Below, piece after piece: positions 1 to 57,711 of a DNA stretch of 64,000 nucleotides. The stretch is from a virus: UHGV virus genome UHGV-0023958. The stretch is one strand, 5' to 3'. Below the pieces are notes generated by a model that was not told the DNA's origin, did no database searches, and saw nothing but the letters and a program-made list of their open reading frames with translations. The position numbers and the translations under genes are program-made. How positions within the stretch are numbered: the stretch's first letter is position 1; every line of letters begins with the position of its first letter.

Positions 1-1
1 A

Positions 2-3000
2 GATGTTAAGGGATAGATTGTTCATTTACCAGTTACAAAAGATAGAAACCTAAATCAATATACAGCTGGCATGGTGTATAATATATCTACTGGAAGCTGG
101 GAAGAAAATATGGCTTTAATACAAGCTCTTACAGATGTATATGAGGGTAAGGGCGATAGATCAAACATCAAAATACCAGGAAGATACACCGGTGGCGTTA
201 CAAGTGGAACATATACAGATGTAACTGGGGCAGAAAAAACCGTAACATATTGGAATGGTAAAACTTTAAAGAAATGGCTAAAAAGCGATCAAAAAGATAT
301 GGAAAGTATGATCTCTTCATTATCTTTAGAGGATAAAAATCATTTTTTGAGACTATTGTTTGGGCAAAGTAATGGAAATTTTTGGTATACAATTGGTTCT
401 AGTAATGAGTTGAGAAAAAAATATAAATCTCAATATGACTAGATTGTTGCGAATAAAGAAAATAGCAATTACTATCTTCAAGACATAGGTGGTTCTTGGG
501 AAATCGGAGAAGATGGTAGTTGGAAATTTATTCCAAGAGAAAGTACTTCCGAAAGTAGATAGAAAGCATCTAAAAATATGTATAATAAAGATTGGTGGGA
601 AATCGCATAGGAATAGGATGAAAATAGACTAATTAATGATTTTTCTAATAACAGAAAAGATATAGATGAACAAACGGCGGCACAAATGGTCCCAGTTGCC
701 TCTAGAAGATTAGCAAGAATTATAGATTATTCTAATAAAGTAGATAGAATCACTCAAGAAATAATTAAAAGAAATCCAGAGTTAGAAGGTAGGGATGTTG
801 AAGAGGTTTCAAAAGAATTTTTAAAAGCTACAAATCCAAAAAATTTAGATAGATATCTAAGATCAAAGGAGCTTTTAGCAGCTTTCCCGAAGGAAGGAAC
901 AGATCAAGAAAAATATGAATTTGCATATCAAGGTTTAAGAGAAGATTCTAATGAGGAATCCAAACTTAAAAATATGCTTTATATAATTGAACAGGCTGGA
1001 TTATTAGACAAAGTAAAGTCCGGATACATGGATTGGGAAAAATATTTTTTTAAACAACAAAAATCGATTCCTTATTCTGTTTTAACATCAATGGCTACGG
1101 GTAAAATGCTTGGATACGAAGAAGATGAGTTGAGGCCAGAGTACGCGGAACAGAGGTCTTAGATAAAAACATTAACATAGGTTGATGAAAAATATATCTC
1201 AGATATGAAGAATCAGATGGGAGATGAAATATTATCTACAGCAGAAGACGAGATTGATTTTTTTAAAAGAAAGATATCCGAACTCGGTAAACAAAAAGGA
1301 TTGGATGAAGACGCAATAAATTCTGCATTGGAGAAAGTCGATTATGCTGTTGAAGATACCGCTGCATAGAGTATTGAAGATGTTTAGAAATATATAAATA
1401 GCCAATATGATGCAAGTGAAATTGAATCTTTTGAAGCTTTACATGAAGCAATGGGTGTCGGGGAATTTTCTGGAGAAGAAACACCATTACAAGAAGAATT
1501 TGAAAATAGTCAAGATAATCTTTATCAACAAATTGATGAAAAACAAAAAGAATTCGAGGCAATTTATAGAACGCAAGTATAGGCATTTAATGATTATATT
1601 ATGTATATGGCCAAAGATATGCTTTCTCTTGCCAATGAAATAAATGAAAATAGCAAAAAAAATAATAAAAAAAATCAATAGAAGAAGAAACAGACAATTG
1701 ATCAAGAATCTAAAAAAATTGAAGAATCTTCTAAAGAAATTGCACAAAATATTGTTAATAATGCTATAGATAACGCAGTCAAACAAACAGAAGAGGTTGC
1801 GCAAATATATACATCGTCAGCAAAAATTTCCAAAGAAGAAAATAAACCTGTTTTAAAAGACGGTGTTTATGTTTGGTCTAGAACTGGTAGAAGATTATCC
1901 GCAAAACAACTTTCTTCACGTGGTTTACAAAATAATCCTCCTTCTGGAAATATTCAATATTTTGGTGGCCCAATTCCAGTTTATCCAGCTGGTCAAGGTG
2001 GAGAATTAGATCCAAATAAAACATATAGAGAAACTGGTATAACGGTTGATGCCGAAAATAAGATAGTAAGTAGAACTTTAAAAGAAGTTCAAAAGAGACA
2101 AGACGGTGGCAAGCGTGGATCGTCTCAGCTTGATGTAATTAAACAGATCAAAGAAGACACTGGAAAAATTGTAAATATAATGGAATAGCAACCACCCGTT
2201 TCTGGTGGTGGTATGCCACCAGAGATTCCAACTACCGGTGGCGGAACTTCTGGCGGTAGTAAGAAAGGCAAATCTAAAGAAGATAAGCAAAAAGAAAAAG
2301 AAGATAAACAGGTTGAAGCTCAAAGAAAAAAAAATAATCAAGAATACGCAAAAGCCTTAAAGACAGAATACGATTATCAATTGAAGATTGATGATGCAAG
2401 ACGTAAGTCCAATATAACTTCCGGTAGAGAAAGAAAGTCTTAGCAAGAATTTATAAAAGTTGCACAATAGCAATTGAAAATAGCACAAGCAACAACTCAA
2501 GAAAGAAGAAAGGCTGTTACAGATAAAGATGCTGCGCTTATTGAATCTGGCTTACAAGGTCAGTTTTCTGTTAAACGTGCCGCAATATATACAAAAGATA
2601 AAGGTGCACGTAATATATTCGACCTTATGGGCGATGATATCAAGAGAGCTTTTTAGAGAATTACAGATTTTGGTGTGGCTGCTCGTATTTTGAATAAAGT
2701 TCAAAAAGAAATTGCTAATGTATATCAAAATATATTGAAGCTCAATGAAGCAATGACAGACATTCGTATTGTAACTGGTGCGAGTGTTGATGAAGCGAAT
2801 TCTTTAATGACTAGTTATAATAAACTCGCAAAAGAACTTGGCACAACAACAACCGAGGTTGCAAAGTCTGCAAGCGAATGGATGCGTCAAGGCTATACTG
2901 CAAGCGAATCTGTTAATTTGATTACTTCTTCTGTAAAACTTGCTCGTCTAGGCTTCATGGATATGAGTTCCGCGACAACATCGTTGACGGCTGTTCTTAA

Positions 3001-6000
3001 AGGTTTCAATCTTCAAGCTACTGAATCATCTAAAATTGTTGATAAGCTTACAAAACTCGATGCCGAATACGCGACAACAGCTGGCGATATCGCTAACGCA
3101 TTATCAAGAACGGCTGCTGCCGCAAAAGCAGCCAATCTCGATCTCGATCAAACTGCAGCAATGCTTACTACAATTATTGATATTACGCAGCAAGATGCTG
3201 GTAGCGTTGGTAATGCTTTAAAGACGATTTTGTCAAGATATGGAAATGTTAAAGCTGGCGTATTTGCTGGAATGGCAGAAGATGGGGAAGACGCATCTGA
3301 AAGCATAAACGATGTTGAAAAGGTGCTGAATGCGATTGGTATTCAGATCCGTTCGACTTCAACAGAAATGCGTGGTTTTGATGAAGTCCTCGATGATTTG
3401 GCTGAAAAATGGGATAATTTAAACGATGTCGAACAAAACGCCGTTGCAACTGCTATGGCTGGTGTAAGACAGCGCAACCAATTTTTAGCCTTGATGCAAA
3501 ACTACAACCAATATAAAGAAAGTTTGGAATCTTCTCGTACATCTTCTGGTACGGCAGATGAAAAATATGCTGCGGTTATGGATAGCATTGCTACTTCTAT
3601 GCAAAAAATACAAACTGCGTGGGAAAGTTTTACACAAAAACTTCAAGCGAGTGGATTTGTAAAAACATTCTTTAAGGCAATTGCAGGTGTTGTTGAAAAT
3701 ATTGATAAGATACTTCCAAATATTGTGGCGATGTTGACGGCTATTGCTGGAAAACACCTTCCAACTATAGGAATGAAGGTCCAAGGTTTATTTGGCGGTG
3801 GAAGTCGTATGGGGAAAGGTGTCAGAGCTGCTTTCGGACGAAGTGGATCATTTGAACAAGAAAGTTTAAGAGAACTTGCAGAATACAAAAAAGGACTTGG
3901 CTATAAAGATGAGGAACTTTCTGAAGCAGAAAGAAAAATCCTTGGTTCTGGGCACCAAGAAAATACCGCAGATGATAAAACAGCATCCAATACCGATTAG
4001 ATTAAATCTGATGTTTCTACTATAAAGGCTTATTTACAAAACAAAAAAGCAGGAGGTGCTACCACTCCGAATACTGGAGATGATACAAATCAAAACGTAG
4101 AGGCTGGTGGCAGTCAAAAAGTTTCTAATAAAAAAGGTAAAGCTAAAGGAACAAAATTTTTAAAAAAAGCTAGAATAGCCTCTGGTGTTACGACTGGAAT
4201 AGCATCGGGACTTTCTTCTGGTATGACTGCTAATTATGGTGATTTTACAAGCACTGCTGACAAAATATTTACTGGTGCTGCTTCTGGTATATTTTCTGGT
4301 GTTGGAACCGCTCTTGCTGGTCCTATTGGGGGTATCATAGGCACGGCGTTTGGATAGAAAATCGGTGAGATATTTTATGGACAATTTCACAAAGAAGAAA
4401 TTGCTCGTCGCAAACGTGTTGATGAAGCTAAGAAGCAACTTGAAGCTACTCAAAAGGTAGAATCTGCAATTACCTCCGCCGAAGAATTAATAAGCAAAGA
4501 TAGAAGCGAATGGGGTTCGGAAGAGTATAAGCAAGAAAAAGAAGTAATTGACTAGATGCGACTTGGATTACAAACTTCAAGCACATTAGCAGAAAACTTT
4601 GCAAAACTTTCTGGTAAGCCTACCGATGTTTCTGATTGGCTTCTTAAGTTATCTTCTGATTTAACATAGCTTGATAAAAGCGTTATTGCAAATTATCGTG
4701 CGGCTCAAATTTTGACGGAAGCGCAAGAAACATATAAAGCTGGCGAAGAAGATCGTGCGGCGTTATATGATAAGCTTGGAAGTGCAGAAGCTTCCATGCT
4801 TAATCAAATTCAGAACATAGATTCTGCTTCTTCGGAGTATCTTGAAAAACATAAAGAATATGAGAGCAAATACGGGAGGACAGTTGAATCTGGTATTGCT
4901 TCAATGCAACAAGCGCAAATGCAATTAGATGCGTTTACTGATGCGTTGCACGAAGGATATATGCAAGCCGCATTTTATTCTTCTGGGGTTTCTCAAATGT
5001 CTTCGACGGATATCGCCGGGGCGAGTCTCGATAGAGTTGTTGCCGAGGTCGCTCGTGCTTGGGCGGCAAGTGATGCTACTGCTTTAGTGTTTGCTAATGG
5101 AATGCTTTTGGATAGTGCAAGAAAATAGATTGTAGCGTATTTAAAAACACAATCTGATTTTACGTCATTAACAAAATCTCCTGGTGGAAGTTTCCGAGAA
5201 ATATTAGATGCTAGAGATGATATTGGAGATTATTTAAATAAAACTGGTAATGATTATACCAAATTAAAAAATATAGTCAATCAACAAGATTTTAAGAAAA
5301 TAAGAGAATTTTTTGGATATGATTCTAAGGATACAACAAAAGATTCTTATATTAAAGATATAATTGATAAAATCAATAAAGCTGATCCAACAAATATTGA
5401 ATTGATTGCGCATGGATTAAACATGACTGTTGAAGAAGCAGAAAAACTCAAAGATGTTATAGGAACAATAACCCTTTCTGATATTTTAAACGGAGCGAAC
5501 AAACTTTTAGATAAGTTTGACGAATTAAATACGATTCTTGGAGAGATTAGCGATAATGATATTTTATCTCCAGATACAATGAATAAAATAGTCAAGAATT
5601 TTCCAAATTTATTAAAAGGAACCGATGAAAGTGGAAATGTTACTATATCAAGAGATAACATTATAAGAAATCTTACAAAGTAGATTACAGATCCAAATGG
5701 TACTTACGCAACTGGATATATTGGTAAAGTGGCAACAGGAGCAAAAACCGAATCTAAATACTGGGATTTATTTAAAGATGTTGCTGATTAGTATTTTACC
5801 GGAGATACGCTTAAATAGATAATGAATTATAGCAATTTCGAAGGTGCGGAATCTATAATGATGAGACCGGAGAATAAGTAGGCATTGTAGAGATTTGGTG
5901 AAATAGTTGCGACTTCAACAGGGATTATTGATTAGCAAGAAAGAGCTAGAAATACATTAATTGAAGCGGAAAACAAATCTTTGGAAAAACAAATCGATAA

Positions 6001-7525
6001 TTTACAATCCATTAAAGATTCAATTGGAGATATCAATAAACAAAGAGAAAAAGAGCTTAATTTAATAAAGGCTCGCGATGCGCTTGAAAATGCGAAAAAA
6101 GAAAAGAAGCTTGTTTATCGTGCCGGTATTGGATTTGTTGCTACGTCAGACTCTTCTGCAATATAGGAGGCTCAAAAGAAAGTTGATGATTTGCAAAATC
6201 AACAAACTCAAGAAGATTTACAATATCAAATAGATTAGCTTAATCAACAAAAAGCAATATTAGAGGCGATTAAGAATGATCCCAATATGGAGAGCTTAAA
6301 AAATACTGCGGAAATTATAAAAGATGAATTGATGTAGAAAACGCCAGGTGGTATTCTTGGGCTATTAAAAAATTTAGATCCAGAAACTTTTTCTGATAAT
6401 GTTCGAGACGGCATTGTGAAAAGTATTACAGAAAAAACGCTAGCCGTTGGGCAAGATACATACAGAAACATAAAGTTTTCGTTAGACACTTTGTTATAGG
6501 ATTATAAAGATTTTTATGATACAAAAAATTATGAAGGAAGTGGACAATCTGTTCAATCTATTTTAGAAGATCCGTCAAATATTTATTTTTCTCGCGTTTC
6601 AAATTCAATAAAAGAAAAACAAAGTGCTATAGAAAGTAAGAAAAAAGAGCTAGATAATTTAAAAGAGAAGTATTTTTCTGGCGATAATAAATCGTTATTA
6701 GGAAGTTATGGCGGAGCAATTGAAAATATACAAAATTATTATAAAGAAAAATATGGAACAGATGATTATTAGGATGTGTCAAAGTTAAAATTTAACAAAG
6801 AGGGTATTTTGTTAGATTTAGAAAATGCTTCTGGTGATTATCATGAAAATTATTTTACAATGGTCAAATACACAAATGAGGCGGTATCCGATGATTCTTT
6901 TACCGATAATAAACATCGAAAATATAAAAAATCACCCGGTAAATCTTGGGAAAGCTTGGGTAAATCATGGAACGATATTGTAGAAAATGATTTGTTATAG
7001 CCGGGAGATTTCGTTTTAGTAGATTTAAAAGGAAATAAACTCGCCTATGTTGGTGTTGATAAAAAATTATATTGGGTACAAACTAAAAAGCCGAAAGATT
7101 AGAGTTATGGTGGTTATGGCGATGTTAATGACACAACAAAAGGAAATAACCCCGATATAGATTATTCTAATATGCGAGCCAAAGGTGATTATAATTATCA
7201 AGGTGGCAACGTTCTCATTAACGAACTTGGTACAGAAGCTATTGTAACACCACAGGGTACGCTTACATCACTTCCTTCTCATTCTGGTATTGTTCCTGCC
7301 GATCTCACAAAGAATTTGTTTGCTCTTGGCGAGATTGCTCCAAATCTTATTGCGACTCTTCGTAATCAGATGCCAAATGTTTCTAAATCGAATTCTACTA
7401 GCAATGATAATTCTACGAATATCGGAACTGTTTATGCAACATTTAATGCAGATAGCGGATTTGATATGAACAGATTTATGATCGACTTGCGCTCTGCCGC
7501 TGGCAACACAAGACACAACAACTAA
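2..7525 (+). CDS. Tail tape measure protein, 5' partial, read with about 30 in-frame TAG codons as sense; ends at TAA 7523-7525.
   Basis: Track ORFs 71-442, 686-1162, 2213-2443, 2474-2656, 2675-4000, 4712-5128, 5402-5683, 5981-6166, 6776-7000 and 7172-7525 are all in frame 2. Codon-by-codon walks of 3998-4712 and 5126-5402 found only TAG between them, no TAA or TGA. The 2675-4000 segment has a TP901-type core (GASVDEANSLMTSYNKLAKELG...LKGFNLQ). Confidence 0.75.
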
Positions 7526-7536
7526 ATAAAATAATG

Positions 7537-7568
7537 AAATAACGCGGTTGAAATATATCGCGTTATTT
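7537..7568 (+). terminator. 10-bp inverted repeat aaataacgcg/cgcgttattt with a 12-nt loop immediately after the tape-measure stop; the U-tract is weak.
   Basis: Perfect complementarity seen in the sequence. Confidence 0.3.
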
Positions 7569-7595
7569 CAAAATAAATATATAAGGAGAAAATAT

Positions 7596-8306
7596 ATGTA
7601 TTATTTGGATTACGCAAAAAAAGTTGGAGATAGATATATTTTGAATTTTTTTGCTGATACAGCTGAAGATATCGCAGACGTTCCAACAAATACACCATAT
7701 ATCACACGTAATGGTACGAATTATGGTGTTCCGCTTGAAACATCTATTGTTACAGTTATTGAAAATGATGTTCGTAAGAATTATGTTCTTCAAAACGGTG
7801 TTTATATTGCGGGGGGTGATGTACCCTCTGTGCTTGGTATGCTCGAAGCAACAGAAAACAAAACATATAAAGCTTCTGACGAAGACCTCGAAGGGTATTC
7901 AACCGTAACTGTAAATGTAGAGCCGAAGTTGCAATCGAAATCTGTTACGGCAAATGGCACCGTTACACCTGATGCTTCTTACGATGGTCTTTCGCAGGTT
8001 ACGGTTAATGTTCCCCCTACAACTCCAAAATTACAAGCTAAAACAGCAACAATAAATGGCGTTGTTAAACCAGATGCTACTTATGATGGTTTGTCGCAAG
8101 TAACTGTAAACGTTCCAGCTACTCCTATGGAAACAAAGACGGTTGAGCCGAATTTCTCGAATGGCAGCGAGGTTCTTACACCGACAGAAGGCAAGGTTTT
8201 CTCTTCTGTGACTTTAACAAAACCCGCTACGTTGCTTCCCGAAAATATTAAAAAGGGAGTTATTATTTGTGGTATCGAGGGTACTTACGAAGCCGCTGGC
8301 GCATAA
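7596..8306 (+). CDS. Tail fibre / receptor-binding-like protein, paralogue A, with an internal tandem repeat of about 27 aa.
   Basis: RBS aaggag then ATG 7596. Its N-terminus MYYLDYAKKVGDRYILNFFAD...NGTNYGVPL is shared with the 9039 gene. The repeat is ANGTVTPDASYDGLSQVTVNVP, present twice. Confidence 0.5.
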   Translation: MYYLDYAKKVGDRYILNFFADTAEDIADVPTNTPYITRNGTNYGVPLETSIVTVIENDVRKNYVLQNGVYIAGGDVPSVLGMLEATENKTYKASDEDLEGYSTVTVNVEPKLQSKSVTANGTVTPDASYDGLSQVTVNVPPTTPKLQAKTATINGVVKPDATYDGLSQVTVNVPATPMETKTVEPNFSNGSEVLTPTEGKVFSSVTLTKPATLLPENIKKGVIICGIEGTYEAAGA

Positions 8307-8316
8307 TTGGTGATTT

Positions 8317-8976
8317 ATGATGAAAAAGTCTAAAAGAATTCTTATGATGATTGGTTTTTATTTTCTTTCATTCACTTGGGGGTTCATAATGAGTTTCATT
8401 GGGTTGTTTGTCGTTTTTGGTTCGTGCTTAATTACAAAAACAAAACCGAAGAGATTTGGTTTGTGTACGTATAATATTATTGGTGAGTATTGGGGCGGAT
8501 CTAATTGGGGATTTGGTTTTATCAGCGATAAAAGGTCTCCGAAATCAACTTATTGCCATGAACACGGTCACGGTTTACAAAATATAATTTTTGGACCGCT
8601 TATGCCGTTTATTGTTTGTATACCAAGTGCTGTCAGATATGGACTGTTTGATTGCGATACAGATAGAGATAAAATTAAGTTTTTATCGATTTTCTGTAGT
8701 TTGTTCGCTTTGGCGTTCTTTATTCCGATGATGATTGGTATATTTGCAAGCTGCTTGCCAGTAATTATTGTGTTCGGTATTTTGTTTTTATACGCTATCA
8801 TTTTGATTGTTTGGCTTGTATTTTTCGAAGCACCGAAACACAAAGGAAGACTGCACCCAGATTATGATTCCATCTGGTTTGAAGGGGATGCTACTCGCAG
8901 GGGAACTGCGTTTATGGAAAAGTGTTTTCCAGAAGAAATTTATAAAGTTAGTAGACTACCCATTAGCTTTAGCTGA
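8317..8976 (+). CDS. Polytopic membrane protein with an HExxH (CHEHGHG) zinc-metalloprotease-like motif.
   Basis: Several hydrophobic segments; the HEHGH motif; lies between the two fibre paralogues. Confidence 0.4.
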   Translation: MMKKSKRILMMIGFYFLSFTWGFIMSFIGLFVVFGSCLITKTKPKRFGLCTYNIIGEYWGGSNWGFGFISDKRSPKSTYCHEHGHGLQNIIFGPLMPFIVCIPSAVRYGLFDCDTDRDKIKFLSIFCSLFALAFFIPMMIGIFASCLPVIIVFGILFLYAIILIVWLVFFEAPKHKGRLHPDYDSIWFEGDATRRGTAFMEKCFPEEIYKVSRLPISFS

Positions 8977-9038
8977 TGGGTGATCCACATGAGTAGTTCA
9001 CAAAAAAATAAATATGATTAAAAAAAGAAGGGGGTATT

Positions 9039-9875
9039 ATGTTATATTTAGATTATGCGAAGCCCGTTGAAGGTGGTTATATACTTAACTTTTTCGCTGA
9101 TAAAGTTGAAGATATGGAAGCTATAACTGGCGGAAAAGAATTTGTTACAAAAAACGGCACGAATTACGGCGTTCCCCTTAAAGGTTCTACTGTCGTAATA
9201 ACTGCTCCCGATAAAGAAAAGAAGACGTTTATTCTTGATGAAAATGGCGAATGGAATGAAGGCGGATTAAACCCGAATGAGTTTTACACGAAGGAAGCTG
9301 CTGACGAAAAATTTATGGAAAAGGTAGTTAACATTAACCTCTCCCCTGATACTGCTACACGAGGCACTTTGACAGAAGAATAGTTAGCTACCTTGATGAA
9401 AGACGATAATAATTATATCACTCTTAACAAAGAAATCTATCGGTTAGCAGACAAGCAATACACCACAGAAATTATCTCCTATGTCAATACAGGTGTGGGT
9501 AGTAATATAATTTATATCACTGTTTCTACAAGAGCTTGGACTTTGGTTGTAGGGGAGAGGCCAAGTACGGTTTATAAACACGAGCTTACCCTCGTTGATA
9601 AAGATAATCAACACATAGAGATATCATTGATTAACAATTGGAAGTTCGAATATGACGATCAGAATTTACGTGAGTTGGTGGGTGGTGGCACGTACTCAAC
9701 TGTTGGACGTTCTGATATTAGCTTTGACGGTTCAGAGTTAGGTTTATACAATTTTTTTAGTATAGACGGTGCTACTGTAGATGGTTATGCTTATTATATT
9801 AAAACAGACGGAACAATAGGTATACAAGAGTTAAGTACAGTACGCGTTGATAGTGACTTGGTGACGGACTTTTAA
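9039..9875 (+). CDS. Tail fibre / receptor-binding-like protein, paralogue B, with one in-frame TAG at 9384-9386.
   Basis: Track ORFs 9039-9383 and 9393-9875 share a frame and are separated only by TAG. N-terminus MLYLDYAKPVEGGYILNFFAD...NGTNYGVPL. Confidence 0.55.
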
Positions 9876-10202
9876 CATTTAAACCTCATATCCCGCTGGT
9901 GAAAAAGACGCTACGGTGCATCTGGTGTGATAACTGGCGGAACCGCCACTTTAAGTGATGGTACGAGTGTACCGATAACTATAACTACCGCCGAAGCATA
10001 ATTCGGCATAAACACTTTATCTCCCTTTCCCCCAATTTGAGAGGGGAGGAATAATAAATAAAATTTAGGTTTTATTATACAGCCCAGTTTTTGTTCGGTT
10101 TTCTGTAAAAAAATCGAACACCAATAAGTTTGGGTGTGGCGAGTGAGATACCTCCCGCCCGCCACAACTCAATATAAAAAATAAAAGAGGAGGCAAGAGA
10201 TT

Positions 10203-13200
10203 ATGGCAGTTTTTAAACCGACAAATTGTTCGCCGTATTTAACATCTTTTGATATTACATATTTGAATGAAGGACCAATTTATTTTCAATGTAAAATAGA
10301 TACGTCAAACACAAATATTGACGGATATGCTATAACTGTTTATGATAGTGATAATCATAAAATTTTTCCGCATAATGGAAACGCAGTCGATAATATATCA
10401 TATATCAAAGATCTTCATTATGATACAACGAAGATTGGATCGATTATTTCTGATGATGGAATTTCTGATTTAAACACTGGTTTAAACGGAAGTTATTTAA
10501 AAATTCCTTTTGTTGTAAACAATGGTTAGAATAGTTATCTAACAAACACAACGAGAAAAAATGTTGTTGTGTATAATAAAAAAACAGACGGAAGTTATGA
10601 AATAAAAGATAATTCTGGAAATATCATTAAATTATATAACGGAAATCAGTATAAATGGACAATAACTTTATATTAGCTCGGACAAGACGCTGTTGATAAT
10701 AAGAAATCTAGGCCAGAAGAAATTAAATATTATGATATGACAGTGGCTTCTGGCAAAATTCTTGGATCTACCAATGAAAGAATCCAAAGCTATCCGAGCG
10801 ATCAAATTTATAATGATTACTTTTTACAATTATATAGTGCTCCAGTTGTTAATGTTGGTCCTGATTTTTAGATTACAAAAATTACAGGAGATGTAAAACA
10901 AGTTGGAACGAGGGTTAGAATTAAAGATTACGATTCGTATCTCGGACACATGTATTTACAAACTGGACAAGATGGTTTGTCTGAGAAAAATTTAGATATA
11001 TCAAATGTTTTCCAAGTTTTTAAAATGAGTAATAACCCAGATGATTTGGGCACAAAAGACAAAGTTGATTTTTGCATTAGTCAAAAATACTTTGTGCCAA
11101 AGTATTTCCAAGAATCTAAATCTGATTCATCGGCAGCATATTTATCTCAAACATTTGTTATTGCAAACGTCACTGGTTCAAGTGCCTCTGAAACTTTGGA
11201 AAAAGTGAAAGATGTTTATAATAAGCCGTTTTTTGAAAACACTGAAACTTTGTATGGTTTACCTTCATCTAATCAATATTACTCTAAAATTTTTAGTGGT
11301 TATGACGGAGACAATTCTCCCCCGGTTATATTTGGTTAGTCAAGAGTTTTATTGAATACGGAAAATAATAACAACGAATTAGATGAAAGTAGTGGGGCCG
11401 TAACTGGTACTAAGGATTATGGACCGAATGGAGGTAGTTCTAAGTTTAACGGTATATGGATTCCAAAAACACCAACTGTTGAAAAGATTGCAGAACATTA
11501 GAATGAAGGTAAATACACTGGAACAGATTATAAAATAACAATTCAATGGTATCGTTCTTCTGATGCTGATACATGGGGAGAAATCACAAACAAAGTCGTT
11601 TTAGATACCAACAATTTCAACAGTGATTATGATTCGTTCGCAGGTCAAAATCTTCAAGCATATACTTCTGAGCAAGAAGGAGAGCAAGTTTCAACCGGTA
11701 CTATTAATGATACGCTTATAAAATTTAACAACGAAGAACCTGTTGAAATTTATTCAAATAATTCTTACGAACATAACTATGGATTTATTTATAAAAACAA
11801 CATGGACATAACTGCATGGTTAGCGTCTATAACTGGTGAGACAACGCATGTACTAACTTATACATACATTTGTAAAAACACTTGGAGGGTAACTGGAAAG
11901 CCAAAGTGGCGCGAAGGCGATAATTTTAATGATTGGATTGGAAATCCTATTTATTTTATAGAGAAAGATAATAATATATTTCAAGACAAGCATCAATATC
12001 AAATTTTAGCATATCGTAATCCAAGTAACTCTTACTTACAAGCGGAGGTTAAGTTTAATTTAAATGAACAATATACTACTTATTATAGTGGGAATTATGG
12101 TTTAGATTGTTTTAATCCACCAGAGGAGTGGGAGAAGTGTGAAATACGCGTTGTTTGGAAAAATGATGCCGCAACAGATAAAAACTTAGATCTCCCAGAA
12201 GTTAATGATACAATTCAGTTTTTTATATATGATATAACAACTGGAATTATTAATTTTATTTCTCCGTCTACAGCCGTGTCTGTTGGAGATAAAATATTCA
12301 ATAAAGATAATTCTTCTTCGAATGTTGTGTTGTTAAATAAAACTGTTTGGGCGATTGGACAAGAGCAAGATGTTTCTACATATAAATATAAAAACAATGA
12401 AGGTCGGTTGGTAGACTATAATTATTATCCGATTTTAAACTTCAAAACAAACGATTTATATTCAATTAAAACATTCTTCCGTTCGAGCAGCGAAAATCAA
12501 TTTAGTTTATATGAACGTCCAACTGTCGATTTAGAATTATACGGCGTTTCAGGCGGTGCAAAGATAGAAATTAATGCTGCTGATAAAACATGCAAAACCT
12601 ATGAGAGAAGTATTTTTGCATAGGCTATTTATAATCAAACCAATTTGGTTCAGTGGAGAAATTATCAATGGTTTCTTTACGATGTTCCAAATATTTACGA
12701 AAACGCCGATGCGTATAAAACAGCAGCTGGATCTGCTTTGACAAAATATTTAAATCCGAATGATCTTATTTTGCAATCAGAAGTTGGTTATGATAAAGAG
12801 ATAAAATATACGTTTTATGGTTTGGCAGAAGAACACCATTGGTATATTATATCACTTGTTTTGACAGATCAATACGGAACAATTATTACAAAGAAAATTG
12901 CTGTTTATACTGATTTTACAGTGGAATTAGAACAAGATAAAGATTGGGTTAATTATGGTCTTCGGTGTGATTTAACCGGCGTCGATATGTGGTTTGAAGA
13001 TAAATACGGTTATATATATCCGAATTTGGGTGATAGAAATTATTTGATAGAAACCAACAACAAATATGCAAACAATCCAAATGGCGTTACGTATTCTGAT
13101 AGTGTTATGAATATATCTGATAACTCAGAAGGTGTTTTATATGATAGCGTATATAGCAATGACGGATTAAGTTCTTGGAATTCCCCTTCTAAACAAAATT

Positions 13201-14339
13201 TAACTTTTGATCAGAATAAAGGTATCGAATTTACGACGAGGGTTACAATAGACAGTTATCAATACTCGGCAGAATTTCTAAACGTTGTTATTAATACAGA
13301 TGGCGGAAACACAAAGAACTTGGTTTTGAAACCAGAAGATTTATATATAAGTTCTAATGATTGGCCAGAAGGTTATAAAGTTGGTTTCCCGAATTATGAG
13401 TGCTATAAGATTGGTAATTATGCTATCGGGGAAAATCCGAACGTATATGTTTATGGGAATGTAACAACCGATTTGTTCCCTAATTCTGATTCTTATAATT
13501 CTTGTATTAAATATAATAATTACTATATATCTTATATTCCTTCGAACGTAGTTCCCCTTGGAGCTAATAAACCTTCTATAAATATTCCAAATTCTTGGTA
13601 TTTTATCAATTATGATGAAGAAAATAGTGTTAAAGATATAATAAGTGATAAACCGATAAAGATAAATAAGATGATTTATGCTTTAGATGATCCCGATGGG
13701 CTATAGAACAAAGATGTATTTTATAATTTGCCAATATTTATAAGAAACGATTTATCTTTAAGCGGGAAAACAATAGAAAATTTACCTGATGGAACTAAGG
13801 TTTATAGTCTTTGGATGGATAAAAACGATGAGATAATTATACCAACAATAGTTGCTATAAATGAATCTGCTAATACTTTTTACTATTGTTATAGAAAAGT
13901 CAATAATCATCAAGAGGATATATCAGATAATATCTGGGAAGATACAAAAGAAAACGGAGAAGATAATATTTGGGAAGACGAAATTACAGTAGAAGATACT
14001 CAATCTGACCATTTAAAAAATAAAGATGGCTCGTTGAATACGATTAGAAATCGTTTGTATGGCAAAGTTTTATATTTTTATGTTCAGTGGAGCGGAAAAG
14101 AAAACGACGATATCACATACGGCATTGTTGGAAATGTATCACAAAGAGTAATAGATGTTGATTCTGAATTGTCGTTGACTTCTGTTAATCCAGTTGAGAA
14201 CAGGGTAATTACAACTGCTTTAAATTCAAAATTAGATACAACAACGTTATCTGATTAGAACACATTTGGTATATTTAAATGTTATACAGATAAATTTGGA
14301 ATATTAACTTTTGTTACTGGGGAGGGTGAAAATGGCTAA
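10203..14339 (+). CDS. Large tail / host-specificity protein of about 1378 codons with at least 8 in-frame TAG codons.
   Basis: ORFs 10203-10529, 10950-11339, 11802-12623, 12645-13706 and 13728-14258 are all in frame 0 with only TAG between them. The TAG at 14256 is followed in frame by TAA at 14337-14339, overlapping the next ATG as ATGGCTAA. Confidence 0.55.
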
Positions 14340-15927
14340 TATTAAGATAGGTATAAGTAGCGGTTATAAACCACAAGATTTTGGTGATCCTTCAAGAAAA
14401 TCAAGAGTTTCTTATTTATATGCTTATAACAAAGACGAATCTTCTCCGTCAAATAGAAATTTTCCAGCGATTTTTTCAAAGAAAGCATATAATGATATTA
14501 TGAACGACGAAAATAAAGATTTTTTATTGTTTGCGTTGAACTATACAGCTGAAAAAGTCAACGGTTTGACAATGCCGCTCCCAGATGGAATTGTTTCAGA
14601 AGGATTAAAAACGTTTCCGCAAAGGTCTATTTATAAAAGAGAAGTGTGGAGAGATGATGACAACCAGGTGCATTATGAAAAAATATTACACCCGGTTGTT
14701 TTACAAAACAATGTTTCTCGTGTTATAGACTATAATGTAACAACAAATAGAAATTATGAATATATAATTTATTTGACAGATCAAAGAGGAAGTCAAACTA
14801 TCCAAAGAGAAATACATTTCCCAATAACAACAAAGTGGGATTATTGGTCTATTTCTGAATTACATAGAACAAGCGAATAGAATGTTTATACAACATCCGA
14901 AAATGAAACGTGGTTATTTAAATTTAATGTTGAACCGGGGGAACAACAGCAGAATGTTTCTAAATCGCAACAAGATACGCTTGGTAAATACCCTGCTTTT
15001 TCTTATGGAAAAAAGAATTATACCACAAGTTCTGTTTCTTGTTTGCTTGGCTCCGAAATGCTTCCCTTTGACTTTTTAACAACGAATTATGTTCTTGTAA
15101 GAAACGAAGATGGTAGCGTTTCATGGGGTTTGGCGCAAGATGTCAGTGAGGTATATGGCGGATATACAGAATCTCGTTGGAAGAAACTATTAGATCAATG
15201 CGGAATGAACGAACGTGTTGTTAATATTTTTGACACAAAAATCACATCTAATGACAGTGTTGATATGTTGAATGAGTGGAAGAAATTGTGCAATTCTGGA
15301 AACCCGAAGTTGTATAAAAATTCCAAAGGTCAGTCGTTTATTATACAGATAACCGAATTTTCAAATTCAATTAATGAATCTTGGGATAAACAGCCGATAA
15401 CTATCAATTTTAGTTGGACAGAAATTGCAGATGCAAGCGATGCAAGAATAATACAAACAACCGAATTCACAACCGATACAAGCGGAAGTGTTTCTGGTGG
15501 AGGAGATGAGCCAGTGATGGATTATAATATTCTTTCTAATAAACCACAGATAAACGGTGTTGAGTTGGTTGGAAATAAAACGGATAAAGATTTATATCTG
15601 GAAGCAGAAGGTAATATTAAATCTATTTCTGGAACAAGTCCTTCTGTAAAATTAGACAACAACATCACTTATAATCTTGGTTCGATTAACGGATTAACAA
15701 CAACATTTGGTAGTATTAATGACGAATACTATAAAAATCGTCAGTGTTCACAGGCAGAAATTAACTTTACTGCCGCAAGTAATTTCACATATACACCTCC
15801 AGAAAATACAACAATTATAGGTGGAGATGTTGAGGGTGGAAAACTCAGTGCTAAAAAGGGCACTTCTTACAACATAGGATTTGGATATGTTGATAATGTT
15901 ATGTATGCCGTTTGTGGCATTAGATAA
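14332..15927 (+). CDS. Tail / baseplate-associated protein with one in-frame TAG at 14878-14880.
   Basis: RBS ggggaggg then ATG 14332. ORFs 14311-14880 and 15043-15927 share a frame and are joined across TAG. Confidence 0.5.
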
Positions 15928-15937
15928 AATATAAAAA

Positions 15938-16024
15938 GGAGAGGTAAATATGATTTATAATTCATCTTAGTTTTCTTTACAAGGAAGCGGAGAGGTAATT
16001 TCTATTACCTCTCCTTATTTATTT
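15938..16024 (+). promoter_or_regulatory. Alternative RNA structure. The SD ggagaggtaaat (15938-15949) has a copy ggagaggtaat (15989-15999) that forms an 11-bp hairpin with attacctctcc (16004-16014), loop ttct and a U-rich tail.
   Basis: Perfect 11-bp stem inside the first 22 codons of the 15950 gene. Its 3' arm is complementary to the genuine SD. Confidence 0.35.
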
Positions 16025-17200
16025 GATCAATATTATAATTTTTATTATATAGAAGATTATATTAAAAACAAACACATATAGCCGAGATTTAAAATATATG
16101 TTTTAAATGCCGATGAAACCGAGAGATATGAAATTCCAAATGGAGATATTATCAGCGGTAGTTATTCCGAAAACTATCAAAATGGTCAGAGGAGAACGTT
16201 GTCCTTTCAATTAAATAATAATAATGGAGAATATACGCCGTCAATTAATCATTTTTGGACTGGGCAGAAATTTTCTTTTTATATTGGATTCAATATGAAT
16301 AACGATGAAAATAGTGTTATTTGGTTTAGAAAAGGAATCTATTCTTGCCAAAATCAAAGCGTTGATAATTCATCTGATACGAAAACGGTTAGTATAGAAA
16401 CAGCTGATAAATTTTCTGTTTTGGAAGGGAAAAGCGGAACATTGGAGTATTCTTATACAATTAATGTAGGAGAGGATATTGAAGAAGTTATAAACAACAT
16501 ATTAAACACGGACAATGGTTCTGGTTTTATGTTGGATTCAAAAGGCATTGTTTATCATTCTTTATTTAAAGATAAAAAGGTAATTTCTCAAATATCAGAA
16601 TCTGCTGGCGCAACTTACGGTTCAATTATTTTAAAACTTGCAGAAATGCTTTCTGCAGAAGTTTTTTATAATGTCAACGGTAATTTGACGTTAATTCCGA
16701 AACAAGAAGTTATCAACGATTCCGACAAGCCGATTTTGTTTTCTTTTAATGCAGACAACGGGGATTTGATGACACATAATTACAGTTTTTCTTTCGAAGA
16801 TATTGTAAACAAGGTTATTGTTATCGGTTCAAATGTTAATGGAAGCACGTGTAGAGCGACGGCTGTCAACAACTCCGCAGATTCTCCAATCAGTGTATCA
16901 AGAATTGGCTATAGAACAGGATCAATAATTAATGATTCTTCGATTAATTCAGATTATCTTGCGCAGGAAAGAGCTGATTATGAATTAAGAAAAGTAAGTG
17001 TTGCTAAAACAAGTGTAAGTAACACGGCGTTATTGAATCCTTTAATAGAAGTAAACAATTTAATAGAAATTACCGATAATTTTTACGGTATAGAAAACGA
17101 AAAATTCCTTGTTCAATCGATTTCTTTTTCGTTAGATTATAGCGGAACGATGTCGATTTCAAGTTCAAATATAAACAATCTTTCATTTACGAATAGATAA
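15950..17200 (+). CDS. Tail protein with two in-frame TAG codons (15968-15970 and 16079-16081).
   Basis: Strong RBS aaggagagg then ATG 15950. Frame 2 stays open apart from TAG, reaching track ORF 16199-17200. Confidence 0.5.
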
Positions 17201-17210
17201 GGAGGGACGT

Positions 17211-18902
17211 ATGAATAAGACAGAACAAGCAAATGGCTTTTTAAATATAATACGCTCCATTATCAAAGAGGAACAAGATAAGCGCGACAGGGTTGAAATT
17301 TGTCAAATTGATAGCGTAAATGAAGATGGGACAGTAAATATAAAAATGCTTTCAGATTTTGAAACTGTTAGAATAATTCCAAATATTTCAAATCAATCGA
17401 TATATAGTTTTAAAAATGGAGATTTGGCTATTATTTATATGATTCAAAATCAATTATCGAACGCGTTTATAATTGCTAAATGCGGTCCGACAAATGAAAG
17501 TTTAAGAATATCTTCGTCGGATGGTGATACAACTGGCGGAGGCACTGTTATACAAAATATAACATATCAAAGCGGAACTACTAGCGGCGTAACATCTGTC
17601 AATGGTAAAACGGGCGAGGTTACTATTACTGCATAGGATCTTGGAGCAATTACTGAAATTCCAGATGTAACACAAATACAATCAACAGATATTTCTTCGC
17701 TAGTTTATGATACAACAAATGGTGCCGCTTTTGAAATAAATAACAGTATTATCTTTTCAGATGGAACAAAAAATAACCCACTTTTAAAATTCAATTTGCC
17801 CATTATCGGCATCAATGGTATTAGTATAGATAAATCTAATGGTAAAAATGTTCTGGAAATTTCAGGAAAAGATTTGCAAGATTTAATTAATTCTATATCC
17901 TTGACTAGTGGTACGAATAATGGAACTTTAAAATTAACCGTTGGTACAACTATTGTTGATAATATTAAAGTTACGGGTTTTGATAAAAAGCAAGACCAGC
18001 TTAGCGAGAGCCAATTAAATGCTGTTAATTCTGGAATAACTTCAGAAAAAGTAACCACTTATGATGAATACCAGTCTTAGATTAATTCTAAATACACAAA
18101 ACCCGATGGCGGTATTCCGAAGTCAGATTTGTCTTCGGATGTTCAAAGTTCTTTGGTGAAAGCCGATTCTGCCTTACAAACCCATCAGAAAATTACAACT
18201 GGTAGTGCGAACGGAACGATTGCCGTTGATGGGACTGATGTTTCTGTTAAAGGATTAGGTTCTCTTGCGTACAAAAATTCTTTGACAAAAACAGATGTTG
18301 GACTTGGAAACGTTGATAATACATCGGATGAAGCCAAACCAATTTCTACCGCAACACAAACAGCCTTAGATGGGAAAGTAAATACTACAACAACGGTAAA
18401 CGGTCACGCGTTATCTTCTAATGTTACTATTACACAATCGGATGTCGGTTTGGGTAATGTTATTAACGCAGGGCAAGATCCAACACCAACATCCGATTCT
18501 ATAAATTATGTTACTTCTGGTGGTGTTAAAAGTTATGTTGACAACGGGTTAAACAAAAAAGCGGATTTACTAGTTAATGAATCAACGGTTACTACTGTAT
18601 AGTCTGGCCGCTTGTATGAGTTTACTGATATTCACAATCCATTTAGTTTATCTATCAATATGGATACATTTAAAACATCTAATGATGTTTCGCAGATTTA
18701 TTTCACGGCAGCAGCTAATTTTGATGTTGTCCTTAATGTTTCTTCTGGTGTTAGAATAATCGGAGATGGTGTTAATGCGAGTACCAAAAAAATTTCTTGT
18801 GTTAAAGGCAATTCGTATTATTTTACTTTTGGTTATACAAAAAAAGGTGTTTCTATTGTAAGTAATATTGATGCAAATTGGAGTGAGATAGCAACGGTAT
18901 AA
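17211..18902 (+). CDS. Tail fibre protein with GLGNVDNTSD-type fibre repeats and three in-frame TAG codons.
   Basis: ORFs 17211-17636, 17796-18080, 18129-18602 and 18612-18902 are all in frame 0. Repeats TDVGLGNVDNTSDEAKPIS and SDVGLGNVINAGQ. RBS aaggaggg. Confidence 0.6.
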
Positions 18903-19004
18903 TATTTATAATATATAATAATATTATAATATATATATAATAAAATAAAACAAATAAAAAGAAAATAAAGTAACTTTTTATTTTTGAAAATAAGGCGAAA
19001 TCCC

Positions 19005-19033
19005 TTGACTTTGGGGTGATAATATGTTATAAT
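19005..19033 (+). promoter_or_regulatory. Sigma70-type consensus promoter: TTGACT, 17-bp spacer, TATAAT.
   Basis: Exact hexamers and spacer; upstream of dUTPase. Confidence 0.55.
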
Positions 19034-19098
19034 ATACTCCAAAGCCAAGGGTGAAAGTCTTTGGTTTAGAAAGTTTTAAGAAAAGAGGTCAGTTTTAT

Positions 19099-19575
19099 AT
19101 GAGAAGTTTTGAAGAAGTAAAACCAGAATTTAAGAAGTTTCCAAATGTAAAAACTCGTTTGCCAGAAAGAAGCGATGCAAAGTCGGCAGGTTACGATTTT
19201 TATAGTAAGGAAAATTATGTTATTAATCCGAAAGAATCGCACGTTTTTTGGACAGATGTGAAAGCACAAATGTACTTTGATAACGTGCTTAATATATACG
19301 CCCGTTCGGGACTTGGTTGTAAATACGGTGTAGTTCCCAAGAACTGTGTCGGAATTATTGATGCCTCCTATTACGGGAATGAAAAGAATGACGGCGGAAT
19401 CGGTGTTTGTCTCGAAAATAAAGGTGATGAGCCGTATTCCGTGAAAGTTGGCGATCGTATTGCACAGGGTGTTTTCACGAAGTATTATATTACCGATGAC
19501 GATAAATATGTTTATGGGAAGGAAAAAGATAATGGCAGAAAGGGTGGTTTCGGTTCTTCCGACGAGGTGAAATAA
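19099..19575 (+). CDS. dut: dUTP pyrophosphatase.
   Basis: Motifs AGYDF, RSGLG, GIIDASYYG, GDRIAQ and RKGGFGSS; RBS aagagg. Confidence 0.85.
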   Translation: MRSFEEVKPEFKKFPNVKTRLPERSDAKSAGYDFYSKENYVINPKESHVFWTDVKAQMYFDNVLNIYARSGLGCKYGVVPKNCVGIIDASYYGNEKNDGGIGVCLENKGDEPYSVKVGDRIAQGVFTKYYITDDDKYVYGKEKDNGRKGGFGSSDEVK

Positions 19576-25188: not shown

Positions 25189-25200
25189 AATAAATTTTAA

Positions 25201-25237
25201 GAGGAGTGTCAAAATTACTTGACATTCCTCTTTTTTT
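25201..25237 (+). terminator. Intrinsic terminator: 12-bp stem gaggagtgtcaa/ttgacattcctc, loop aattac, then TTTTTTT.
   Basis: Seen in the sequence; one G-U pair. Confidence 0.6.
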
Positions 25238-25869: not shown

Positions 25870-26667
25870 ATGTCATTTCGTGAATTTTATAATGAAGATT
25901 GTTTTATAAATATGAAAGGGTTTAAAGATAAATCAATAAACCTTATTTTAACTTCTCCGTTTTATAATACGAATAAAAAAGCAGGGAAGAAAAATACGCT
26001 TGAAAACACAGAAATCAAAAAAGGAACATATTCTTATATTAGATATGACGAACACGTCGATAATATGACGGACGAAGAATATGAAGATTTTACAAAAAGA
26101 TTATTTAATGAATTTAATAGGATTGTTGTAAACAACGGTGTTGTTCTTTATAATCTTTCTTATAGCAACGATAATCCAGCAAATTTGTTTTCATTAGTTA
26201 ATATGATTTGCGAAGAAACGAATTGGATGATTGCCGATGTTATTGTTTGGAAAAAGAAAAGTGCTTTGCCGAATAATTGCTCTCCAAATCGCCTAACTCG
26301 TATCTTTGAGTTTATATTTGTTTTTTGCAGAAAAGGCGAAGAAAAAACTTTTTATGTAAATAAAAGGGTGATTTCATTACGCGCAACAGGGCAGAAATCG
26401 TATGAAAATATCTTTAATTTTGTCGAAGCGAAGAACAATGACGGTCCGTGTCCGTTGAATAAAGCGACGTATTCAACTGATTTGTGCAAACAGTTACTTC
26501 GAATTTATGCAAATCCAGAAGACAAAGATTTTGTTGTTTACGATCCTTTTATGGGAACAGGGACAACTTTGGTTGCATGCAAGGAAATGGATATAAATTG
26601 TTTTGGTTGTGAAATTTCTAAAAAACAATGCGAGTGGACGCAAAATCGCTTGACAAATCAAAACTAA
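25870..26667 (+). CDS. DNA methyltransferase, N6-adenine / N4-cytosine beta class.
   Basis: Motif IV TSPFY and motif I VYDPFMGTGTT. Confidence 0.65.
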   Translation: MSFREFYNEDCFINMKGFKDKSINLILTSPFYNTNKKAGKKNTLENTEIKKGTYSYIRYDEHVDNMTDEEYEDFTKRLFNEFNRIVVNNGVVLYNLSYSNDNPANLFSLVNMICEETNWMIADVIVWKKKSALPNNCSPNRLTRIFEFIFVFCRKGEEKTFYVNKRVISLRATGQKSYENIFNFVEAKNNDGPCPLNKATYSTDLCKQLLRIYANPEDKDFVVYDPFMGTGTTLVACKEMDINCFGCEISKKQCEWTQNRLTNQN

Positions 26668-26678
26668 TGTGATATAAT
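26650..26678 (+). promoter_or_regulatory. Promoter TTGACA-N17-TGnTATAAT overlapping the methyltransferase stop, upstream of the suppressor tRNA.
   Basis: Exact consensus. Confidence 0.5.
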
Positions 26679-26699: not shown

Positions 26700-26719
26700 T
26701 GTCAAATCTAGATTTGACA
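26700..26719 (+). promoter_or_regulatory. 20-bp perfect palindrome tgtcaaatct/agatttgaca whose 3' half supplies a second TTGACA -35 just upstream of the tRNA.
   Basis: Seen in the sequence. Confidence 0.35.
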
Positions 26720-26748: not shown

Positions 26749-26823
26749 TGGGGAATAGCATAACGGTAGTGCGGTGCTCTCTAAAAGCACTCTGTGTCGG
26801 TTCGAGCCCGACTTCCCCCGCCA
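26749..26823 (+). tRNA. Amber suppressor tRNA, anticodon CUA, with Gln-like features U1, G10 and G73.
   Basis: Cloverleaf: acceptor tggggaa/ttccccc; D-stem gcat/gtgc; anticodon stem gtgct/agcac with loop cTCTAaa; T-arm gtcgg-ttcgagc-ccgac; encoded CCA. Confidence 0.75.
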
Positions 26824-26856: not shown

Positions 26857-27231
26857 ATGTCGTAGATACGTGAATCTTGTTATTTTTATACTTAGAAGGC
26901 AGCATCTTATGTCGGGAGTAGAGATTATGAAATCAAATACGATCCCGGCGTTTTCGTTGTATTTTCTGAAGATTTTTATCCCTTGGACGATGACAAATAC
27001 CAATCGTGTTTATGCAGGAGTTTGAATTTGGCGAACGAATATAACACAAATGTTTCTTATTCAGACAAGGAAGATTTGGCCAAAGCAATTTATTTCGATT
27101 TATATCAGAAACCAGATGAAACCATTTTTGTCTGCGAAAATGATGCAATTGCCGATGTGGCAAACAGGTATTTTGGCGAAGATAGTATTATAAACATTAA
27201 AAAGGTAATTGAGGAATTTGAAGAAAAATGA
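26857..27231 (+). CDS. Small protein whose only in-frame ATG is followed by TAG at codons 3 and 13; lies immediately downstream of the suppressor tRNA.
   Basis: GGAGG RBS 9 nt upstream of ATG 26857; same frame as track ORF 26983-27231. Confidence 0.45.
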
Positions 27232-47437: not shown

Positions 47438-47550
47438 GCACCCTACGGTAGGTATACATACGCGTAGTCCGAAGTCATTGGCGGATAGAGTAAGTAGAAG
47501 CTATAGATTCTAAGCACCAGCATCGCTCTCGACACTAACGGATGCTACCC

Positions 47551-57291: not shown

Positions 57292-57711
57292 ATGAGAATT
57301 GAAATTATGACAACACCTATTTATGTATCAGATGATGGTAAGAAAAAATCGCATTTTCCGTCTGAAATTGAAGCGTATGAAAGTATGCAATTAAAAGAAA
57401 TTTTTGAAAGAAGAACCACTGTTGCTAATATTTCTGCATCCACAACTTTGTATCTTTTTAAGAAAGGCGATATAAAAACATTTAAGGAATTTCATCCTGA
57501 AGCTTATCTTGATTCTATAAGTGAAGATGAAGAAGGGTATTTTGTTTATGCTTATGATTCAACTTATGATAGTTATAATTTGTATCAGAAGAGATGTTAT
57601 GAAACAATGATTTTGGAGAGAATTGAGCATTATAAAAATATTCTTGATAAGATCACAGACAGCATTGTGGTAAGAGAGAACTTTCAATAGGTGAATAACG
57701 GAGGATTATAA
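57292..57711 (+). CDS. Hypothetical protein. The track ends at TAG 57688-57690, but the frame reaches TAA six codons later.
   Basis: This is the only early gene whose first stop is TAG; an in-frame TAA follows after QVNNGGL. Confidence 0.4.

Follow-up and report, generated by a model that had tools for sequence, protein, structure and literature searches.

The DNA considered here is a stretch of 64,000 nucleotides (nt) from the virus genome UHGV-0023958 (one strand; called the window below). The phage to which it belongs very probably (probability about 0.88) uses genetic code 15, in which the codon TAG is translated as glutamine (Gln, Q) and TAA and TGA alone terminate translation, and it encodes its own suppressor transfer RNA (tRNA) with the anticodon CUA. 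When open reading frames (ORFs) are called with TAA and TGA as the sole stops, the longest ORF on the + strand lengthens from 1,100 to 2,507 codons. This ORF corresponds to the tail tape measure and lies in a tail module at the start of the window. The phage has a guanine-plus-cytosine content of 33%, and is probably a phage of about 113-148 kilobases (kb) with a long non-contractile tail and a Firmicutes-type host. Sixteen related loci from IMG/VR were used for comparison, 12 covering the tail module and 4 the 5′ portion of the tape-measure gene; these have 75-95% DNA identity to the window, and their source contigs are 113-148 kb long.

TAG as a Glutamine Codon

The frame-2 fragments between 2 and 7525 are co-linear and form a single open frame without in-frame TAA or TGA, being split by TAG alone, as a preliminary description of this DNA had stated. 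That description had also expected a tape measure of at least 2500 codons in one ORF, which agrees with the 2,507 codons in the window and with the continuous ORF in relatives L013 and L014 (2,816 and 2,690 amino acids (aa), respectively), where the ATG lies about 800 nt upstream of the window start. Homologues aligning only as separate short proteins, which would have spoken for fragmentation, were not what was found in these two relatives. Thirteen PHROG tape-measure families match the ORF, the alignment with phrog_4211 extending over aa 759-2245 and crossing many TAGs; the profile matches proposed as a check for the tape measure and the tail fibre do extend across TAG sites, as does that of the tail protein. 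Tape measures from standard-code phages align to the core only, and were discarded as a test of continuity, as the aligned core holds a single TAG. In two further relatives, L016 (13573-15570) and L015 (11824-13816), the tape measure is split in three ORFs: one of 1,464-1,471 aa ending with TGA, one of 505 aa with 7-9 TAGs, and one of 1,257-1,266 aa. An insertion, a frameshift or a real division of the gene may account for this split.

Comparison with the relatives indicates that the frame is maintained on both sides of the TAGs. Of 9,980 substitutions that have one or more TAGs upstream, 6,203 (62%) are at codon position 3, and past the TAGs of the tape-measure 5′ part the fraction is the same (1,756/2,819, 62%). 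For the large ORF at 10203-14339, which had no family match in the profile search, position-3 substitutions prevail after each TAG, and the TAG sites face TAG, CAG and CAA in relatives. This bias implies purifying selection on the frame beyond every TAG, i.e., the TAGs are translated through. The TAG at 15968 is retained in 12/12 relatives.

The residue inserted can be deduced from the codons with which TAG is exchanged. In a codon-by-codon comparison, TAG in the window faces TAG 94 times, CAG 17 times, CAA 12 times and any other codon at most 7 times; in the opposite direction, TAG in relatives faces CAG 39 times and CAA 25 times in the window. The share of window codons that face a TAG is 13.4% for CAG, 0.7% for TGG and 0% for AAG. 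The 5′ half of the tape measure has the same exchange pattern (TAG against CAA 18 times, against CAG 8 times). CAA differs from TAG at two positions and yet is found opposite it more often than any codon one step away apart from CAG; TAG therefore behaves as a Gln codon, and the earlier view of it as a glutamine-like sense codon is upheld by CAG and CAA being its main non-TAG partners in both directions. TAG makes up 18% of the Gln-type codons. For the Logan contigs L179 and L180, proteins in a public collection have Q where the DNA reads TAG; thus, the gene caller of that collection had already applied code 15 to the lineage.

TAG is also missing from the set of terminators. The 68 curated ORFs stop with TAA (52) or TGA (16), and none of them with an obligatory TAG, in keeping with the claim that TAG is never used as a terminator. 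The one apparent exception, at 57688, had been described as backed by an in-frame TAA, which is indeed present after six sense codons (at 57709). The same layout of TAG, six codons and TAA occurs in relative L133, whereas in L132, L134 and L135 the reading frame is offset by 1 nt and closes with TGA. Because three of the four relatives use this TGA, the TAG at 57688 is taken as the product of a recent insertion or deletion. Two tiny, unsupported ORFs (31 and 37 aa) terminate with TAG.

Distribution of TAG in the Window

The tail module contains 48 TAGs in 6,128 codons, compared with 7 TAGs in 13,322 codons elsewhere (Fisher p = 1e-17). The latter seven are confined to three ORFs. The other 57 well-supported ORFs, comprising 12,790 codons, have no in-frame TAG, although they contain 357 off-frame TAGs and about 100 in-frame TAGs would be expected at the rate of the tail module. 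Thus, there are two classes of genes (see Table 1 for the TAG-bearing ORFs and associated features). The preliminary description had confined TAG to positions 1-18902; this is so for most TAGs, but four are in the ORF at 24379-25188 and two in that at 26857-27231. The TAG at 25825 is upstream of the real start of a methyltransferase gene, the PHROG match of which starts at aa 54.

Within the tail module, the five ORFs that follow the tape measure and had been listed as interrupted by TAG all are, with 1-8 TAGs each, and each TAG-bearing ORF from 9039-9875 through 17211-18902 is preceded by a GGAGG-type ribosome-binding site. TAG as a sense codon "throughout" the module needs some narrowing: six ORFs have in-frame TAGs, but two (7596-8306 and 8317-8976) have none. 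The proposed density of about 1-1.5% of codons applies to the tape measure (1.3%), but not to the other tail genes (0.2-0.6%) nor to the whole module (0.78%). Downstream of 18902, 60 ORFs of at least 50 aa were counted, rather than the approximately 70 early genes given before. The paralogues 7596-8306 and 9039-9875, which share their N-termini, flank the TAG-free membrane ORF 8317-8976, which has an HEHGH motif; the region 7596-9875 may be a cassette that was swapped within the tail module.

Table 1. TAG-bearing genes, suppressor tRNA and related signals in the window.
Feature	Position	Strand	Details
Tail tape measure	2..7525	+	2,507 codons; 33 in-frame TAG; ends with TAA; 5′ end cut by window edge
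Tail-module ORF, 278 aa	9039..9875	+	1 TAG; N-terminal paralogue of TAG-free ORF 7596-8306
Large tail or baseplate ORF, 1,378 aa	10203..14339	+	8 TAG
Tail ORF, 531 aa	14332..15927	+	1 TAG
Baseplate-hub-like tail protein, 416 aa	15950..17200	+	TAG at codons 7 and 44; phrog_1887, E = 1.9e-41
Tail fibre protein, 563 aa, last gene of tail module	17211..18902	+	3 TAG; phrog_35419 (tail fibre), E = 1.5e-24
First near-consensus host-type promoter	19005..19033	+	TTGACT, 17 nt, TATAAT, with TG; directly after fibre gene
Fibre-like structural ORF, 269 aa	24379..25188	+	4 TAG; followed by terminator 25199-25232
Perfect sigma-70/sigma-A promoter	26650..26678	+	TTGACA, 17 nt, TGnTATAAT; 12/12; about 70 nt upstream of tRNA(CUA)
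20-bp perfect palindrome TGTCAAATCTAGATTTGACA	26700..26719		Between promoter 26650-26678 and tRNA; stem conserved in relatives
Amber suppressor tRNA, anticodon CUA	26749..26823	+	ARAGORN; Rfam general tRNA model, 52.8 bits
ORF, 124 aa, PIN/VapC-like predicted fold	26857..27231	+	Starts 34 nt after tRNA(CUA); TAG at codons 3 and 13
Sole possible TAG terminator	57688..57711	+	TAG, six sense codons, then TAA at 57709

The division into two classes of genes is paralleled by the promoters. The + strand was scanned for the host-type consensus TTGACA-N17-TATAAT at a threshold of at least 11/12 positions. There are 14 such sites, thirteen of them intergenic and most with a TG extension, all within 19005-60712; none was found in the tail module (1-19004). 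At the promoter at 19005-19033, the TAG-bearing tail module gives way to the TAG-free operons. The distribution of promoters means that the TAG-free genes are arranged as host-promoter operons, and these include the genes for dUTPase, NrdD/NrdG, a methyltransferase, a DnaB-like helicase, DnaE, a RecD-like helicase, ClpP, PhoH and RNA ligase. The recoding is biased to presumptive late or structural genes, and the presumptive early replication genes can be read with the standard code; the promoter distribution agrees with this.

Relative L013 has, before the tape measure, seven ORFs with 0-1 TAG each. The structural region of L013 also has, just upstream of the tape measure (6998-8020), a TAG-free tyrosine integrase/recombinase (phrog_1, E = 5.8e-31), which hints at a temperate or plasmid-prophage lifestyle.

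Two TAG-bearing ORFs outside the tail module have a bearing on timing. The N-terminal ~48 aa of the first (24379-25188) also occur in proteins with a C-terminal Gp10_C or Peptidase_S74 domain, and this ORF is regarded as fibre- or baseplate-like for that reason. Relatives retain its TAGs, for which the public database gives Q. The ORF closes a unit that is opened by a host-type promoter and followed by a strong terminator, and its timing may be set by translation instead of transcription. The second (26857-27231) follows the suppressor tRNA. Its TAGs, at 26863 and 26893, are both conserved as Q in all close homologues, there is no alternative ATG downstream of them, and the ORF adjoins a suppressor in this phage family only. 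Its product is possibly PIN-like, to judge by the predicted fold, and the ORF looks amber-gated. The product had no Pfam, PHROG or PDB sequence match and no PIN signal at the sequence level; on visual inspection, it seems to lack the first Asp after strand 1.

The Suppressor tRNA

The tRNA(CUA) had been predicted to be encoded by the phage, and is located at 26749-26823. It is nearly invariant in all relatives with sequence in this region, with one substitution among four of them. The cloverleaf is canonical: the anticodon stem has 5 bp, the D loop 7 nt including GG and the variable loop 5 nt, and the CCA end is encoded. The acceptor and the D arm are Gln-like, with a U1·C72 mismatch and G73. 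The bacterial tRNA-Gln identity set for glutaminyl-tRNA synthetase (GlnRS) has been tabulated (PMC9976931, Table 1), and tRNA(CUA) conforms to it at G73, G2-C71, G3-C70, G10, U35 and A37. The pattern of its first 24 nt is shared by 86 bacterial tRNAs, all with U1-A72, of which 85 are tRNA-Gln and one is tRNA-Asn; as the pattern scan required U1, this result leans towards Gln.

Several other approaches added little. Ranking by the 3′ half of the tRNA alone was uninformative, as were BLAST searches with the tRNA among GenBank phages and E. coli genomes. A pairwise comparison with E. coli tRNAs did not separate Gln from Trp and was given no weight. The ARAGORN call "tRNA-Gln(ttg)" at 46148-46219 was considered as the parent of the suppressor, and was rejected as it is below the Rfam threshold and does not resemble the suppressor. 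The idea that the Thg1-like enzyme of the phage repairs U1·C72 to G1-C72 was dropped, as this would give a first pair of Glu type, yet TAG acts as Gln.

The combination of U1·C72 and G73 is also seen in at least five unrelated phage tRNA(CUA) in IMG/VR and in the second Sup-CTA of phage phAss-1 (see below). The U1·C72 mismatch is absent from all 86 bacterial tRNAs that share the 5′ strand. Another abundant type of phage suppressor, which is the most frequent CUA tRNA of Gln type among IMG/VR contigs of 55-99 kb, differs in having U1-A72 and A73. Between its promoter and the tRNA(CUA) of this phage is the palindrome TGTCAAATCTAGATTTGACA, which could be an operator or an RNA/processing hairpin.

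Proposed Mechanism

The data support the conclusion that the tail genes need amber suppression, the phage tRNA being the sole visible means of reading the TAG-bearing class of genes. The preliminary description proposed further that structural-protein synthesis is tied to expression of the suppressor tRNA; the need for suppression and the presence of the tRNA stand, whereas a role in timing or regulation is an inference. In such a scheme, release factor 1 (RF1) of the host would stop at TAG early in infection and the TAG-free genes would be made normally. The suppressor tRNA would accumulate and would be charged with Gln by the host, either by GlnRS or by glutamyl-tRNA synthetase (GluRS) plus GatCAB. 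The charged tRNA(CUA) would outcompete RF1, and full-length tail proteins would be possible only then. If p is the read-through at each TAG, the yield of full-length tape measure, for the 33 TAGs of the part of the ORF within the window, is p^33, which requires a p of ~0.93 for a yield of 10% and ~0.98 for 50%. Thus, RF1 termination would have to be almost abolished late in infection. Losing RF1 termination would cost the phage nothing, because release factor 2 can read every phage terminator.

An elaboration of this scheme, and an improbable one, is that the tRNA does not stand alone but belongs to a small "code-switch" unit comprising the perfect promoter, the 20-bp palindrome, tRNA(CUA) and the co-transcribed PIN-like RNase. 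The pre-opened U1·C72 would help tRNA(CUA) to capture the glutamine-charging enzyme of the host; the ambers at codons 3 and 13 would allow the RNase to be made only once suppression works; and the RNase would attack host RNA (e.g., the RF1 message or host tRNA), making the switch complete and irreversible. If true, such a unit would account for ribosomes passing more than 30 ambers in a single gene.

A number of observations weigh against recoding by a tRNA(CUA) that carries Gln and times the tail genes. No release factor or aminoacyl-tRNA synthetase (Pfam/PHROG, 40 window ORFs) and no obvious RF1 antagonist were found among the ORFs searched. The promoter of the tRNA is of the same early host type as those of the TAG-free operons, so the tRNA(CUA) is probably made early. 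The code of the host is assumed to be standard. At C72, A36 and A38, the tRNA(CUA) deviates from the Gln identity set (which has U1-A72, G36 and U38), A36 being needed for reading UAG; and in a host without GlnRS, GatCAB would normally need U1-A72 (PMC9976931). Finally, TAG is retained in 58% of aligned cells and CAG in 50%; as this retention is no better than that of CAG, the TAG sites appear to be drifting synonymous codons rather than placed switches.

Alternative Explanations

Two of these properties, an early-type promoter and drifting sites, lead to the alternative that has most in its favour, though it is still the less probable account: the recoding is real and serves no regulatory purpose. 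Here, AT pressure would have removed the TAG stops, a suppressor would have been acquired, and TAG would have drifted in wherever it was tolerated, i.e., in late-translated, low-copy genes, with purifying selection barring it from early genes. This fits with the variation between TAG and CAA/CAG among relatives of 75-95% identity, where TAG is no more conserved than CAG, with the highest TAG density being in the low-copy tape measure (1.3%), with the few TAGs in the seven L013 ORFs upstream of the tape measure and with the early-type promoter on the tRNA, and it is the evolutionary path proposed by Borges et al. Three observations fit it less well, none of them decisive. Some TAGs are fixed in all sampled relatives (15968, in 12/12; 26863; 26893); the last two, at codons 3 and 13 of the ORF that shares a transcript with the tRNA, resemble a gate; and the fibre-like gene at 24379-25188 ends a unit that has a host-type promoter, so that its timing may be translational.

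That TAG is read as a residue other than glutamine (tryptophan, lysine/pyrrolysine, tyrosine or glutamate) is very unlikely. ARAGORN labels the tRNA "Pyl", which is merely the name that program gives to the anticodon CTA. A tRNA-Pyl has a 6-bp anticodon stem, a 3-nt variable loop and a short D loop without G18G19; the tRNA of this phage is built differently, with its 5-bp anticodon stem, 5-nt variable loop and 7-nt D loop with G18G19. The D loop AACGGTAG is also Trp-like, and Trp came third in a crude similarity test, but this leaves the outcome unchanged, because amber suppressors with a tRNA-Trp body are charged by GlnRS, and with Gln, in E. coli (PMC2965240). A minority of TAG sites do face AAG, TAT or GAG in relatives; however, CAG and CAA dominate the non-TAG partners in both directions, and TGG, AAG and TAT, each one mutation from TAG, are rare.

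Slightly less probable again is that the host, by an alternative code or a suppressor of its own, treats TAG as a sense codon and that the phage only mirrors it. Phages that share the code of a recoded host are known, for code 25. In the present case, however, the 57 TAG-free ORFs would be expected to contain about 100 in-frame TAGs, and such a strict two-class pattern means that TAG must be a stop when the TAG-free genes are translated; furthermore, the phage has its own conserved tRNA(CUA). As for the TAG-separated fragments being separate short genes, pseudogenes or assembly errors, which is how GenBank records of similar phages were initially annotated (as pieces), the likelihood is negligible: the fragments are co-linear in one frame without start signals after the TAGs, profile matches cross the TAGs, TAG is kept or swapped with Gln codons in 16 independent contigs, and a position-3 bias follows every TAG.

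Comparison with Known Recoded Systems

The recoding of TAG to Gln is the already documented genetic code 15 of phages, and both the phenomenon and its proposed logic have been published; the NCBI taxonomy contains a "Caudoviricetes code 15 clade". Late-gene TAG-to-Gln recoding with phage suppressor tRNAs and standard-code replication genes has been described for crAss-like and other gut clades, including phages that infect Firmicutes, and Firmicutes-infecting recoded clades of 150-200 kb exist (Borges et al.). This phage resembles them in reading TAG as Gln, in having in-frame stops in structural or late genes, in encoding a suppressor tRNA, in its low GC content and in its loss of TAG terminators; it differs in that the "code change module" (release factor or synthetase) was not seen in this window. 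No terminase, on which assignment to one of the clades of Borges et al. depends, lies in the window, and no lysis cassette, the subject of the lysis bias that they claim, was identified.

The gut phage phAss-1 (OQ749652, proposed Phassvirus; Babkin et al. 2023) is ~136 kb long, and has a siphovirus-type tape measure of 3,149 aa that is broken by TAG (PMC10607447). In phAss-1, TAG is Gln, Sup-CTA tRNAs adjoin nrdD/nrdG, and there is no dedicated synthetase (PMC10607447). Its second Sup-CTA has U1·C72 and G73, like the tRNA(CUA) described here. Nevertheless, phAss-1 is a different lineage, with no nucleotide match and weak hits for 4/71 window proteins (100 of 136 kb compared). It has 3 suppressors, 36 tRNAs and a recoded TerL and portal, whereas the window has one suppressor, and the ORFs upstream of the tape measure in its relatives carry few TAGs.

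For code-15 crAss-like phages, Gln at TAG has been confirmed by metaproteomics (Peters et al. 2022; PMC9523058). These phages and the present one use the same code. The code-15 crAss-like phages are podovirus-like Crassvirales of Bacteroidota, without Shine-Dalgarno sites. In contrast, the present phage has GGAGG ribosome-binding sites, promoters with a TG-extended -10 element and a DnaE like that of Clostridium phage c-st.

The E. coli suppressors supE (tRNA-Gln CUA) and su+7 (tRNA-Trp CUA) are similar to the phage tRNA in having the anticodon CUA, U35 and a body with G73, G2-C71, G3-C70 and G10 that is recognised by GlnRS. They are host mutants and give partial suppression only, whereas the tRNA described here is phage-encoded, has a mismatched 1:72 pair and is required to give near-complete read-through of more than 30 sites in one ORF.

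The nearest cultured relatives are distant: DnaE has 43% identity to its counterpart in Clostridium phage c-st, and the tail protein has 27% to that of Thomasclavelia phages. A megablast search with positions 1-20000 against GenBank phages gave no match; the lineage is distinct from every GenBank phage record at the nucleotide level. It is abundant in IMG/VR, ENA and Logan assemblies.

Other Features of the Window

A HEARO/omega RNA (58865-59072; Rfam RF02033, 121.7 bits) is followed by an IscB-like ORF (59100-60329) with the Pfam domain RRXRR (E = 3.8e-66) plus HNH; thus, 58865-60329 is an OMEGA/IscB element within a phage genome. A tRNA-repair-like set (51164-53279 and 61117-61899) comprises a T4 Rnl1-type RNA ligase, a kinase with AAA_33/KTI12 and HD domains, and a Thg1-like 3′-5′ nucleotidyltransferase. 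ARAGORN reports a tRNA cluster at 46057-47627, in which Tyr, Asn, Gly and Val reach the Rfam threshold and a fifth call, "Gln(ttg)", is below it. There are two putative homing endonucleases, both adjacent to essential genes: a weakly HNH-like ORF between nrdD and nrdG (21712-22665), and a LAGLIDADG ORF that overlaps the start of dnaE (33353-34456).

Implications

As the phenomenon has been published and automated pipelines already handle it, the value of the find is modest. For annotation, the window needs translation table 15; with TAG as a stop, dozens of pieces are all that is left of the tape measure and most tail genes. The find adds to the known code-15 phages a Firmicutes-type siphophage lineage of ~113-148 kb, which is frequent in metagenomes but lacking from the phage records of GenBank.

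The lineage also provides a clean example for asking whether recoding times late-protein synthesis, with TAG-free host-promoter operons on one side and a promoter-less, TAG-rich tail module on the other. As a test case for timing, it additionally offers the fibre-like gene at 24379-25188 and an amber-gated ORF in the transcription unit of the tRNA. The points that would repay further work are the recurrent U1·C72 design of the suppressor, the amber-gated, possibly PIN-like ORF and the read-through of more than 30 ambers per gene. The 33 ambers in one gene imply a near-total loss of RF1 termination.

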